A stretch of 63,885 bases of DNA from a virus (lineage: Duplodnaviria; Heunggongvirae; Uroviricota; Caudoviricetes), in IMG/VR virus record IMGVR_UViG_2718218139_000008. One strand, written 5' to 3'. Made by a program: the position numbers. Shown here one piece after another: positions 48,001 through 54,000 of the stretch (within the stretch, counting starts at the first letter, position 1; the number at the start of each line of letters is the position of its first letter).

Positions 48001-51000
48001 CCAGTAATACGTCGTGTCACCACAAATCCACGGCACATCTGCAGCACTGCCACCATGGCACTGCGCGTTAAACACGGAGAGGTCAGCACGAAACTGTGTC
48101 AGCATGGCTGTAAACAGCGCAGGTTGCTGTGCGTGGGTGGCGGCGCTCATGTCAAACTCTCCCTGCATCCAGCACACCGCCAGCAACACATTTTTCGGGT
48201 TCTTCTGTAATGCAGCTTTAGTGCGCGCAATCAGGTCCTGATATAACGGTTTACCCACACCCCAGCGTGCCGAATCCTGGCTGGCCCCCGTGTCCGCACT
48301 GAATGTCCCCTCCGCGCCCTGGGTGAATGCCGAACCACCACGACAGCATGGTACCAGCAGGATCCCCGCGTTATTCGGGATATACGGAAGCAGTTTTTTG
48401 GCAATATGTAAGCCCTGGCCGACACAGCCGTACTGCCCTTTGCTCAGGTCTGCCTTCGGATGATTCAGCGTACTCATATCCTGCACATCATGCAGGCAGT
48501 GGTCAGCCGGGATGATGTCGTTATACGTACAACTCTCTCCACCCGGAGTTACCGTGCTGCGGCGCGCCAGCTGTTTAATGCGCGGATCCGGAGCATCGTA
48601 AGAATCCGGTAACGGAAGCCCTTCACCGTAGGCCATGCCGTTGGACTGTCCGGCAAGCACAACCACGTAGAACCAGTCCGGCTCAGATGAAGGGCCGACC
48701 TGTGGATCTCCTTCAATAGCCACCGCCTGCATCAGTGTGTACGGCGTAATGGCAACCGGTCCGCCGTATGGCTGCCAGCCCTCTTTCAGTTTGTGTGTCA
48801 GCTTTTCCGCAAGGTCTGACGGCGACGCCGCCCTGACAACATCATAGTGTTTAAATGCCATGAATCCTCCCGGCCGGGATAATATTGTGAGTAAAATGAG
48901 GAGCGGGCTGAAGTCCGGAAGTTACAGGACAATGGCAGAAGAGAGACAACAGCCCGCAATACGAAAAAGGCCGCGCTATTGCGCAGAGTGATTACTGTCG
49001 GATATTATTCGCCAGCTGAAATATTACTTCACGTTTTGTTGTTTATTCCTTGCCGCCCGCGTCTCCCTGCGCGGGCTTTTTTTGTCCATAAGAAAGCCCC
49101 TCCGGAGAGGGGCTGGAGAGTGGCGCTATGTGCCATTGCATGGTGCCGGGTGCCTCCCGGTGAATTCAGTACCAGCACCTGAATCCGCGATTATCCCATA
49201 TACCTACTCGCTGATTGCCCCTCCGCACAGGGGGATTCACCATGCCAGTTTCTTTTAACAAACTCCCCGCAAACCAGACAACAGTCAACCGCCTGAATTG
49301 TGAGACATTTAAAAAAAAGGCCCGCAAAAGCGAGCCAGGGAAAATAAGTGTGGCGCGTTGTACTGGATTCGAACCAGTGACCGATTGCTTAGAAGGCAAT
49401 TGCTCTGTCCGGCTGAGCTAACAACGCAGGATACAGATAATGGACCGCCTTCGGGGACCCGAACTCCGCGCAACCAGCTTCGAAAGCTGGCGCTCTTTCC
49501 TGATGAGCTAATGGCGGTATGTGATGGTGGCCCTTGCTGGATTTGAACCAGCGACCTGGCGATTATGAGTCGCTCGCTCTCACCACTGAGCTAAAGGGCC
49601 GGGTCAAAAAATAATAATCAGATGAAAATCAATAATCAAGCCCTTGCCTGGATACATATCTGTCTGGCGGGAAGCCATAATAGCGGTGAAATACAGAAAT
49701 AAAGTAGGACCAGCTTGAATAACCGCATTTTTCTGCTACAGCCTGTCCATATCCATGCCGGGAACATAACATATTGACAGCAACACGCATCCGCTCTTCC
49801 AGCAACAAGCGACTGAACATGTGCCCTTCATTTTTCAGTTTTATCTTTAACAAACTCTCACTCATATGCAGGCGTAACGCAATCGCACCAAGCGTCCAGC
49901 TTGCTGATATATCTGTCTGAATTATCGCCCTGACTTTGGCACTTATACTGGATAAACATCCACTTAAAAATAATAATATCCGTTCATCTGATTCAAACAG
50001 CGACAGGCATGCCATCATAAGAAACATATCCGTGGTATCTCCGGAAAATCTCTGGCTGGTAATTAAAGCCTCAGCCAACGCAGGGTTGTTGGGTTCCAGT
50101 GACAGATAAAGCGGAACGTCAGTCAGATGAGTTCTTGTCAGCTTATGCTGAATTTCCAGATATTGACTTACTATGGAATGGTTTATATCGAAAATTTTAA
50201 CTTTGCCATAATGCATAAGGAAAAGCGCCCTGATGCATTTGGTGGCCAGAACGACTGAGCCGGGCTTAAGTGACAACGTATCCTTTTCAAGAAAAATATT
50301 AATTGGGGAGCAAACCATGATAACTGAACAGACAACAACCATTATAATTTTACTTTCATTAGCAATTGGTTAGTTCAATTATAGCCCCAAAAGGTAAATT
50401 ATCATCAACACATAAGCAAAGGACTGACAGGTGCCGCTAACACCCACCAGCCGCCCATTTACCACAAATAAAAAAGCCTTCAGGACTGAAGGCGTCTGTA
50501 ACAACCGAACTGATAGTCTGCCAGACCCGCATAACCAGCTGGGTCAGTATTAACTGGCAGCGCTCGCGTGAAAGGTACGTATTCTGCGCAATCTCCCCGA
50601 CCGTCGCCGGTTCGGTGACGCTTAATTCATCAAACACAACTCTGGCGGTTTCTGTCATATCCTGCTGTTTCAGCATGTCTTTTTACCCTTTCCGGTTAAC
50701 GTGACACACCAATAACTCTTGTCGAAAAAGCCAGCAAGCTGAAAGACCTGTATTAATAACTACCAGCACATTTAACGCACTGCGCTACTTTGCGGGCACA
50801 AAAAACCCGCTCAGAGGCGGGGTCAAGCTATGCGGCGAAATAACCACTCTTAACAGCATACCTGATTTTTTACGTACGTAAATGCTTTGCCGTGCATATT
50901 TTTCATGCAAATGTCACGTCCTGCTATTTTTCAGTCTTATAAATTTAAAACCATAGAAAAAATCAATTATGTTTTAAAAATGGATAGGTAAAGAATAACA

Positions 51001-54000
51001 AGTGACACAGATTCAAACCAAAATGGAAAAGGGTGGCAACCCACAAACGCCCACTCCACATCCATGACAATCCATACACAACACCAGATAACGTGGCAAA
51101 TAATACAAGTAAAGCACCACCTGAATAGTGAAAAAAACCAAACAACAAAGCCGCCACAATTAATGCAACCAATGGAGACGTTACTTCTGATAGCCGTGAT
51201 TGAATATACCCTCTAAATAATGATTCCTCTGCCAGAGACACAAAAAACAAATTAGCCAATATAAACTCTGGCAACCACTCAGGAAAATGAATCTCTGGCT
51301 TTAATCCACCAAAAAAAACAGCCAAAAACAGGATAAGAGGAACAGAGAGCGACAGAACCCCCCACTTCCACAAAGACACTTCTGATTTTACTTCTTTTTT
51401 AAACAAAGAAGATGTACACAGGACTAACAAAAATGGCACCAGCGCTTTATCAAAATTAAAATACATTGTATAGGGAGTGCTTTGAGGGCCAACAGTAACA
51501 GAATTTAGCACTACAGGATTGTGAAACCCTGGCCATAGATGGAAAGATAATGCTATGGCTGATAAAACTATGCCAACTTCATATATAGATTTAGCCCAGG
51601 CGTTATATTTCCAGTTGAACTTCAAAATAATAAAAAAAACGATTGTAGCAACAAAAAATAACACCGACCAATCAATAATATCATTAAGCACAGCCAGGAC
51701 AACAGACACCGTCAACAATGAAAAAGCCACTACCTTATGCCAACTGAGAGTTGACAGTGACAGTACTAACACAATCCACATAAGCACTCCTTTTATTTAA
51801 TGATGAAGATTGATTATCAATATTTTCAATTCACCAGGCAACATTTTATCTACCTTCCACAATACATGACCATCAAAAAAAATAAACATGTTAATTATAA
51901 ACACAGAAAACATAACCCTCATCACTATATATCCCTACCGCATATCCATATCTAACCGGACATTCAGAGCCATAAGCATTCCTTCAATAATACCTTCCGC
52001 TTTATAAAGCCTTTTACCAATAAGCCCATCAGAACATCTATGCTTACGTGCAAGAGCCATAAATGTCATTCCACCTACGTAATAATCCACCAACAAATCG
52101 TGCAAATACTGATTATTCTTGTTTAATCGTGCCATACAACCACAAATTATCATGGCGTCATCATCAGAACACTGAGGACGTGATTTCACTTTAGTCGGGA
52201 TTAATCCTTTAAAACCAGCAGCTATCGAGGGCCATGTTACATCTTCATGATTATTTGCTGCCCATGCCCCCCATCGCTCAAGAACCATCTGGATATCACG
52301 CGCCATCGTTACCACCTCTGATTTCGTAAATCTTCACGCCCAGCCGTCCACCTGGCACAGGCTGACCGCGCACAATATTGATTTCATCAAACTGCTCGTC
52401 ATCAATGAGCACTTCCGCATGCGTCAGCGCATCCAGCGGTGCTTTCAGAATGTTGTCCAGGTCACGGCGGCGCTTATCCGGTGGTTCTGCAATAATTTTT
52501 ATTGCCAGCCGTCCGGACAGGCTTAATTTCAGCCGCTGCTGGCGAACAATAAGCGCCACAGCCCGGCGATAACGCTCACCGGCTTTTGATACAAAATATG
52601 TGCTGCCACGACGTCGCCAGTAGGTGTTCACCGTCGGCGGGTAAGGCAAAACAAACTCTATACGCATCAGTAACCTCTTTTACCCGAGCACGCCGGTTGC
52701 AAAGGCGTGATCAAGAAAACGAAAAATTAAATCAACCTGGGAACCATGCTTTTCTTCGAACGCCAGCGGATCCGCATGAAGCTCGTTGTGATGCTCCCGA
52801 CACAGCGGTAGCGTGAAAATATCGTGGGATTTTGTTCCCATTCCACCCTGACCATGACCAATCAGATGATGAGGATCGTCCGCTGGCTTACCACAACACG
52901 CACACGGCTGTGTCTTTACCCAGCGTGTGTATTTCTCATTTACCCAGCGGCGACGTTTAGGTCGTTTCATGAAGGATTCCGGAGACTCCGGATCAACGGC
53001 AATGCTGACCACCGTCTTTTCCTGTGGTGGGTTCTGTTGCTGGTGGGCGTTATGCGGCAGCACAATATTTTTAGTGCGCTGCTTCAGTATGCTGGTGGCC
53101 GTCTGCTCTCCCGGTACGATGTCGCTTTCACGGTACATTGAGCGGATTTTTTCCGCACGCAACCCCAGCGAACGACGTAATACCGCTTCCGGTAGCGCGT
53201 CAGCCACCTGATTGCGGACCGCCCACCAGGATAATTCAGCCAGAGATAATTCACGCTCCTGCGTACCGCTTATTGCGTGACCGATGACGTCAATCATCCA
53301 TGCTGACAGGTTTTGATGAGCAAGTTGCTCGAGTGATTCGGATGTCTGGTCACGCAGCTGGTTGTCGCAGTGCCAGCACAACACCATCGCGCCAGCGCCA
53401 TAACGGTGAATGACGGTTTCACTGTGGTGATAATCGCCGTGTGGCCACTGGCAGGATTTAACATGGCGCAGTAACCAGTCAGACAATGCGCCAGCGCCAC
53501 CAGCAGCACGAATCACCCGTTCGTCGCTGAAAAATGGCAGTAATGATTTATCCTCCGCCAGCGGCTGGCGAACGTCAGGGACGATGCCGGACGGCAGACC
53601 GCGCATGCTTTTTGGTTCCGGCGCCACCAGCACTCGAGGATTGTGAAATACCTGCATGGATTCACGACCTGGCTTAAGGACCACCAGCCCGAGTTCCGGT
53701 ACCAGAACAGGTCGAAGTAATACCCGCACGTTACCTCCAGATCCGTTGCTGGAATGTGCGGGACGGACGCGGTGGGCGTTCAGAGTAAGGCAGTCTGACT
53801 GAGATGATCCAGTGTCGGAAGTCGAGGCTGAGGGCTTTCCTAAACTCATACCCACGTCTGCGATAGTTCTGAATCAGCCACTCGGCCTGCTCTTCAGTGC
53901 AGGGGGCATGCTGGAACCAGTCAGGTTTGAATGCATGAGAACGCCGCCCGTGCCTGCGGGCAAAGGCGGCAGAATCATTAGAATTGTGTAATTTGGTATC

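Follow-up and report, generated by a model that had tools for sequence, protein, structure and literature searches.

Which genes occupy the interval between the short Q antiterminator gene and the tRNA cluster of a lambdoid prophage, and does such cargo serve the phage or the lysogen? The question is raised by the viral stretch IMGVR_UViG_2718218139_000008 (63,885 nucleotides, hereafter the window), which carries two prophages, A and B, and in whose prophage B a reading made from the DNA alone (the sequence-only reading) had described positions 49629-51787 as an AT-rich module of late-region cargo that comprises a CPBP-type intramembrane protease gene, a 79-amino-acid open reading frame (ORF) and an AraC-type regulator gene. 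Our answer, to which we assign as a whole a probability of about 0.8, is that this interval corresponds to ECs1085-ECs1086-ECs1087 (Z1787-Z1789) in a lambdoid prophage of the Sp4 type found in attaching-and-effacing Escherichia coli, that it is composed of three cassettes, and that these include the gene for the regulator PsrA and a gene for a CPBP-type membrane protein.

The region is well represented among sequenced genomes. The 3.1 kb from 49300 to 52400 show 99.7-99.8% identity to prophage DNA of O157:H7, O55:H7, O111 and O103 genomes and are at least 99% identical in 559 records; most of the region is found in 534 complete E. coli genomes, and the window nearly equals another IMG/VR record, UViG_2728369393_000008. 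The gene order in prophage Sp4 of E. coli O157 Sakai is the same, i.e. ECs1084 (Q), ECs1085, ECs1086, ECs1087, ileZ-argN-argO and ECs1088, with ECs1085 labelled "CAAX amino terminal protease family" and ECs1087 labelled "AraC-family transcriptional regulator". The Q protein differs from ECs1084 (123 amino acids) by a single residue, the product of the 79-amino-acid ORF is 100% identical to ECs1086, and the AraC-type protein is 100% identical over 237 amino acids to ECs1087 read from an upstream ATG. Three differences separate the CPBP protein from ECs1085 (S, V and F in the window where Sakai has F, A and Y), the third of which lies within motif 2 (FGFFH, FGFYH in Sakai) and spares the conserved F and H. 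The genes psrA and Z1787 are located at 1177238-1179390 in Sakai (NC_002695.2) and at 33983-36135 in NZ_CP124741.1.

The link to the Z numbers is provided by published primers and by the ECs number. Both primers used for reverse transcription PCR of Z1787 (PMC2654852) match the CPBP gene exactly (51744-51764 and 51270-51289), and Z1787 thereby comes to lie, in keeping with expectation, two genes upstream of Z1789. The Sp4 gene ecs1087 is named psrA in a 2026 paper of the laboratory that introduced the Psr names (PMC13502914), and psrA is given as z1789 in two reviews (PMC10877973, PMC8565820). The second psr copy of O157, encoding PsrB, is 91% identical to the window protein, in good agreement with the published PsrA-PsrB identity of 90% (PMC10877973, PMC8565820), which indicates that the window carries the PsrA allele. 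Both genes were already known from E. coli O157 prophages, and none of the region is new.

All the genes listed in the sequence-only reading are present at the positions it gave, on the minus strand. The left border of the cargo region is formed by the QuuD/82-like Q gene (51935..52306; PF06530, E 5e-52), and the right border by the tRNA cluster ileZ-argN-argO (49351..49600; ARAGORN, Rfam and Sakai annotation), in which the tRNA called 'Met(CAT)' is ileZ, a tRNA-Ile2, according to the Sakai and RefSeq annotations. Between these borders follow the Q-CPBP spacer (51782..51934), the CPBP gene (50963..51781, 272 amino acids, Z1787/ECs1085), the 79-amino-acid ORF (50437..50676, ECs1086) and psrA (49629..50342, 237 amino acids, Z1789/ECs1087). 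No Rfam family was matched within 49629-51787. Compared with the flanking genes (GC 0.54-0.56), the spacer (0.281), the CPBP cassette (0.36) and the psrA cassette (0.40) are indeed rich in AT, whereas the middle piece, with a GC content of 0.49, does not fit that description. The single terminator noted earlier has a counterpart, as two terminator-like hairpins flank or overlap the 79-amino-acid ORF. One is situated 3' of the CPBP gene (50796..50821) and consists of CCCGC-loop-GCGGG (50821-50806, five GC pairs) with a subsequent T run; the other, at 50476..50493, contains the stop codon of the intact frame of the middle gene.

The view that this cargo forms one module did not survive comparison with related phages. 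Blastn alignments revealed mosaic breakpoints that delimit a CPBP cassette (approximately 51934/50856), a TrmB-like cassette (50855/50406) and a psrA cassette (50405/49604); judged from these alignments, the interval is a stack of three independently assorting cassettes in the slot between Q and the tRNA/nanS-p/lysis genes. The segment from 50855 (or 50870) to 50406, which includes a terminator-like hairpin, a small winged helix-turn-helix gene and the second hairpin, is 87-89% identical in phiP27 and in Stx2a-type phages, and in phage Stx2_EH2201 this cassette begins 38 bp past the Q stop codon. In both phiP27 and Stx2_EH2201 a DNA methylase gene takes the place of psrA and homology returns at the tRNAs (49603), which defines the psrA cassette as 50405-49604. 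Its left edge, where homology to the phiP27/Stx2a-type phages ends (50406), coincides with a promoter-like site at 50405-50378. Furthermore, a Stx2k phage and psrB-type loci contain the TrmB-like gene, the AraC gene and the tRNAs, without CPBP, downstream of other Q types, and CPBP is present without psrA in other prophages. At the opposite end, homology to the Q genes of our phage collection stops where the Q coding region ends, and no match to the Q-CPBP spacer was found in that collection. When the spacers of different lineages were aligned with one another and with that of a lambdoid phage whose Q is related, in order to place the late promoter pR', the spacer tracked the CPBP allele; it is conserved only among prophages that share both Q and CPBP alleles.

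The 79-amino-acid ORF of the sequence-only reading exists, but it is a frameshifted pseudogene. It represents a small TrmB-like winged-helix gene (65 amino acids in its intact form) that was inactivated by a deletion of one nucleotide at around position 50530. This deletion is common to the window and Sakai, and the resulting frameshift exchanges the last 16 residues for 30 unrelated residues; intact copies are present in phiP27 (L23), in the O157 psrB locus and at locus L047, whose CPBP lineage is 96.7% identical. RefSeq annotates the ORF as 'TrmB family transcriptional regulator, frameshifted', and its product belongs to PHROG 331, a group of unknown function, and has no match in Pfam or NCBIfam.

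A broken gene in a prophage that is full of insertion sequence (IS) copies and whose holin gene is truncated might suggest that the prophage is defective and that all of its cargo in this region lacks a function and is decaying. We regard this as extremely unlikely. The ratio of nonsynonymous to synonymous substitutions (dN/dS) is 0.14-0.24 for the CPBP gene, determined against alleles of 84-97% identity, and 0.22-0.44 for psr, values typical of purifying selection, and the near identity of positions 49300-52400 in several hundred records points in the same direction. In addition, expression and mutant phenotypes have been published for the CPBP gene as well as for psrA, in contrast to the outcome the sequence-only reading would have taken as refuting it, namely that neither gene is expressed or gives a phenotype.

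PsrA is the better understood of the two cargo proteins. It matches PF12833 (HTH_18; residues 155-230) with 36.6 bits at a cut-off of 33.6 and PF00165 (HTH_AraC) with 35.3 bits at a cut-off of 26.6; its best NCBIfam matches are YdeO and GadX, and it shows 31% identity to YdeO of E. coli K-12 over the full length (E 5e-32). This similarity to YdeO and GadX fits a regulator acting on gadE. Sakai annotates a shorter form of 195 amino acids, but the first 42 residues of the longer form are conserved in PsrB-type proteins and the alignment with YdeO starts at residue 1, which supports the 237-amino-acid form. Upstream of the gene lies the best promoter-like site found in a consensus scan of the region (50378..50405; ATGATA, a 16-nt spacer and TATAAT, 10/12 consensus matches), which we infer to be the psrA promoter. 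The psrA cassette is a single-gene unit with its own promoter-like site that encodes a YdeO-like AraC/XylS activator. Among 5426 complete E. coli genomes, 725 carry genes of the psr family, the median copy number being two, and all copies examined adjoin a phage tRNA cluster, just upstream of it.

According to the literature, PsrA and PsrB are AraC/XylS regulators confined to prophages, which increase GadE and YhiF and thereby repress type III secretion encoded by the LEE (locus of enterocyte effacement), and PsrA helps the bacteria to persist in an ovine model of colonisation; PsrB increases acid resistance and binds to the promoters of hdeA and gadE (PMC10877973, PMC8565820). Attachment to host cells is followed by induction of PsrA and GadE, both of which respond to the prophage-encoded small RNA HnrS (PMC13502914). 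We adopt this published mechanism for the window, where PsrA would raise the acid-resistance regulators gadE and yhiF, and the prophage would by this route couple acid resistance of its host to lower secretion after attachment. The earlier suggestion that a prophage AraC regulator can rewire stress or virulence regulons of the host has therefore already been demonstrated experimentally, for PsrA, the identical protein. That PsrA allows a prophage to take over the acid-resistance cascade of its host and to tune type III secretion during colonisation was published between 2011 and 2015 and has been reviewed since.

Two further observations concern regulators of this kind. On the prophage A side, the window contains a gene 100% identical to Sakai pchA (15337-15648, minus strand), a PerC-family activator of the LEE, and an activating Pch regulator and the repressing PsrA are thus found approximately 34 kb apart. 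In the Stx2k-converting phage phiSTEC1575-Stx2k (locus L003; OQ243220.1, 16390-19071), a psr-family AraC gene lies immediately upstream of the tRNAs and stx2k, which shows that a Psr regulator and Shiga toxin can share one phage.

The CPBP gene is harder to interpret. An ORF from a GTG codon spans 50963-51787 (274 amino acids), but translation almost certainly begins at the ATG at 51781, which is preceded by an AAGGAG Shine-Dalgarno sequence and yields 272 amino acids as in Sakai and RefSeq. Residues 171-260 of the 274-amino-acid ORF match PF02517 (Rce1-like) with 70.0 bits at a cut-off of 22.4 (E 2e-19), and weak NCBIfam matches to myxosortase models fall far under their cut-offs. All three motifs reported earlier as intact are present, EExxxR as EESLFR (185-190), FxxxH as FGFFH (214-218) and HxxxN as HFGLN (253-257), and they withstood alignment of 27 sequences down to 47% identity, in which E185, E186, R190, F214, H218 and H253 are invariant and N257 is conserved in at least 90%, with D in one sequence. 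The N-terminal half, outside the Pfam domain, contains invariant blocks specific to this family (H81-x2-PGF-x-N88 and Y107-x-N-x-DKA-x2-PF117). The AlphaFold model (pLDDT 94.7, pTM 0.91) consists almost entirely of hydrophobic helices. In a Foldseek search against the Protein Data Bank (PDB), Rce1 (4cad, probability 0.91) and SpdC (6u0o, probability 0.99, TM-score 0.46-0.50) were retrieved, all other matches being noise; the E-values are weak (about 0.03) and identities to solved structures amount to 14-18%, and a sequence-profile search of the PDB gave no match. On the basis of motifs and model, the protein would be a glutamic protease that spans the inner membrane several times and has retained its active site; its substrate in that bacterial membrane would be membrane-embedded or lipid-modified, and its activity would benefit lysogen or phage. 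SpdC and some other members of the CPBP family act as scaffolds rather than as proteases.

Of the 5426 complete E. coli genomes, 571 contain the CPBP gene, for the most part as one copy. Phage-borne copies are 55-85% identical and form one clade in a neighbour-joining tree, and 13 of the 14 mapped contexts in phages or prophages have the gene directly downstream of Q, which belongs to either of two unrelated families (PF06530 or PF03589). The gene that follows is variable (a holin gene, the TrmB-like gene or TerB), and psrA is the neighbouring cargo only in the mapped near-identical copy (locus L025). Dickeya and Providencia have chromosomal orthologues with about 50% identity, which belong to the core genome and stand alone in ordinary neighbourhoods (two contexts).

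This distribution bears directly on the suggestion that the CPBP protein provides bacteriocin immunity or acts as an abortive-infection factor, comparable to PlnI and SkkI of Gram-positive bacteria, which would guard the lysogen from a cognate peptide toxin or a superinfecting phage. The assignment to the same Pfam family with three intact motifs would agree with such a role, and a prophage-borne gene under purifying selection is what one would expect of a function that protects lysogens. However, the search for a partner proposed in the sequence-only reading came back empty, as no bacteriocin, toxin or conserved partner gene was found in the window, the 14 phage or prophage contexts or the two chromosomal ones (very small ORFs were not systematically scanned). 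The downstream neighbour changes from phage to phage, the chromosomal orthologues stand alone, the group to which the protein belongs, PHROG 13291, has no assigned function, and CPBP, PsrA and the 79-amino-acid product had no match to defence models of PADLOC-DB 2.0 at E <= 0.01. The proposal is therefore unsupported; we do not think that the protein is an immunity protein paired with a bacteriocin, and consider a role of this type in general rather improbable.

The constant position after Q suggests another role, in which the CPBP gene, as the first gene of the Q-dependent late transcript, serves a late function of the phage itself and its product processes a phage or host membrane protein for lysis timing or envelope disruption. 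The location immediately after Q with two unrelated Q families is in favour of this view, and in some phages (loci L021, L056 and L057) the next gene found downstream is a holin gene. The interval between Q and CPBP contains no terminator-like site, and a strong one is found 3' of CPBP. On the other hand, Z1787 transcripts were detected in uninduced cultures (PMC2654852), the gene is under purifying selection in prophages that are incapable of lysis, chromosomal orthologues have no phage genes nearby, and at megablast sensitivity the CPBP gene was found in none of the 50,697 records of the phage collection. In the window the holin gene is truncated by an IS element (46605-46727); prophage B thus cannot complete lysis, and any benefit of its cargo goes to the lysogen. 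Taken together, we judge a dedicated late function unlikely, and the framing of these genes as lysogen cargo in the Q-to-lysis region is right.

The fixed place of the CPBP gene after Q, without an intervening terminator and with a strong one behind it, nevertheless suggests that it is transcribed from a promoter in the spacer. Consensus matches revealed three promoter-like sites there (51872-51843, 51841-51813 and 51829-51800), and the promoter that serves CPBP is possibly the late promoter itself. We tentatively propose, as one possibility to be regarded with some doubt, that the phage-borne CPBP clade represents a conserved, uncharacterised accessory function of lambdoid phages, which has kept the first place after Q over at least two unrelated Q families and divergence to about 55% identity. 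If the gene is transcribed from the constitutive late promoter ahead of the first terminator, lysogens would produce the protein even when Q is absent, with higher amounts upon induction, and as an intramembrane protease it might modify the envelope for superinfection exclusion, resistance to membrane-active agents or control of lysis.

A different function has been attributed to this gene in a study of host cell signalling. Jandu et al. (2009, PMC2654852) described Z1787 as a 'putative protease on OI-50' (O-island 50), and in their interpretation it would be a virulence protease which, once released by the bacterium, prevents interferon-gamma/STAT-1 signalling in epithelial cells of the host. 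Contact with HEp-2 cells induced Z1787 2.7-fold, the deletion mutant lost STAT-1 inhibition, and the gene had a partial effect when introduced into HB101 (PMC2654852). Yet complementation remained partial (PMC2654852), and when the same group returned to the subject in a later paper, Z1787 was not mentioned and the secreted factor was considered to be as yet unidentified. The predicted structure is composed almost wholly of transmembrane helices with the catalytic residues within the bundle, which makes release as a soluble factor implausible. Moreover, the deletion lies approximately 620 bp upstream of psrA and may have confounded the result through a polar or regulatory effect on PsrA. Judging from the model, we do not think that the CPBP protein is a secreted, host-targeting protease, and hold this explanation to be very unlikely. 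If it is instead an envelope protease, the published STAT-1 phenotype would be indirect.

Several points weigh against our identification of the region and the roles derived from it. The reviews place psrA (z1789) in OI-50/CP-933N (PMC10877973, PMC8565820), as is the case for Z1787, whereas Sakai and one EDL933 assembly have the identical gene in the prophage next to yccA (the Sp4 position), and the CP-933N-like prophage of strain ATCC 43894 contains neither the CPBP nor the AraC gene; the OI-50 label may date from the original EDL933 assembly. The mechanism of PsrA is drawn from two reviews and one later paper of the naming laboratory, and its effect on the LEE, a downstream target of PsrA, would apply here only if the host of the window carries that locus. 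All promoter and terminator calls are consensus matches. For the CPBP protein no experiment, here or in the literature, has identified a substrate, and the one functional paper (PMC2654852) proposes host STAT-1 inhibition instead.

With respect to its significance, the CPBP gene occurs in roughly 10% of complete E. coli genomes, mostly in attaching-and-effacing lineages, is maintained by purifying selection and in several lineages of phages keeps its fixed place behind Q, and the sole functional claim made for it is weakly supported and mechanistically implausible. Next to the gene identities, motif conservation, selection and genomic distribution described above, the division into cassettes and the conserved linkage of Q and CPBP add modestly to what was known, and the window leaves current understanding unchanged.

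As for the surroundings of the cargo, the assumption that prophage A uses the same place for its own Q-proximal genes turned out to be imprecise. Its lambda-type Q gene (PF03589; 23477-24298, minus strand) is followed directly by two tRNAs, with nothing in between, and the cargo of prophage A, a TerB-family gene (22480-22983, minus strand), comes after these tRNAs, followed by STnc100/AgvB and a second copy of nanS-p. This layout is that of the psrB locus and of the CP-933N-like prophage, but a psr gene is missing. In the potC-side prophage of ATCC 43894 (NZ_CP194055.1, 1626000-1675000), which carries nleL, espN and espK, a lambda-type Q is followed by TerB and NanS.

Seven identical, in some cases partial, copies of a 1265-bp IS element, assigned to the IS3 family or to IS600 by RefSeq in related genomes, are distributed over the 64 kb, six of them in direct orientation (6155-7419, 11206-12470, 17141-18405, 41497-42760, 45372-46599 and 62686-63885) and one inverted (58781-60045). 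Both prophages are heavily disrupted by them, and only 41 codons of the prophage B holin gene are left. Adjoining an IS copy, at 7416-8010, three overlapping direct repeats of about 271 nt with a period of 162 nt and 87-100% identity form an unexplained tandem array. A run of seven A's at 54620-54628, where GCA_003015325.1 has eight, is the sole difference over 16.8 kb; it splits a gene for a 367-amino-acid protein with HTH_3 and Peptidase_M78 domains (ImmA/IrrE-like), leaving a C-terminal ORF of 152 amino acids (54112-54570), and may reflect either a genuine frameshift or an error in sequencing the homopolymer. Rfam matches above the gathering score are located at 49084-49274, 22119-22311, 56161-56336 and 26741-26915 on the minus strand and at 22057-22118 and 34840-34891 on the plus strand. 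They include STnc100 3' of the tRNAs in both prophages, the anti-GcvB small RNA AgvB in prophage A only, one DicF match and two sok antitoxin RNAs.

Compared with Sakai Sp4, the prophage that surrounds the cargo in the window differs by its many IS600-like copies, and the host strain is not O157 Sakai. For a 25-kb piece of the window, coverage of at least 80% was reached by none of the complete E. coli genomes; the nearest sequences are UViG_2728369393_000008 and GCA_003015325.1. Among known regulators, PsrB (Z2104) is 91% identical to PsrA and occupies the same slot immediately upstream of the tRNAs; in contrast to the window, the psrB locus has an intact TrmB-like gene, a DUF1133 Q-like gene and no CPBP gene. 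The psr copy of the Stx2k phage is about 89% identical to PsrA, ECs0287 (presumably PatE) 37%, and YdeO and GadX are chromosomal, unlike the prophage-borne PsrA. PatE, YdeO and GadX have in common with PsrA, PsrB and the other Psr paralogues that they belong to the AraC/XylS regulators and provide an input to the gadE/hdeA circuit of acid resistance (PMC10877973).

The CPBP protein shares the PF02517 core and the three motifs with Rce1, SpdC/LyrA of Staphylococcus aureus, immunity proteins of the PlnI/SkkI type, MroQ and the myxosortases. It differs from those members of the family that have a partner, as no gene for a bacteriocin, an AgrD-like peptide or a protein with a sorting signal was found nearby in the mapped contexts. 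The slot itself is familiar: between Q and the lysis genes of lambdoid phages lies a site for morons, which is occupied by stx in Stx phages and by the nmpC/lc porin gene in phages of the DLP12/PA-2 type. The cargo of the window follows this arrangement in both position and logic. Stx2k, Stx2a and Stx2e phages have the TrmB-like cassette and the tRNAs in common with the window and carry stx after the tRNAs, and in mEp332 a porin gene directly follows a related Q gene. Where these known phages place a toxin or a porin, prophage B carries a putative membrane protease and a transcription factor.

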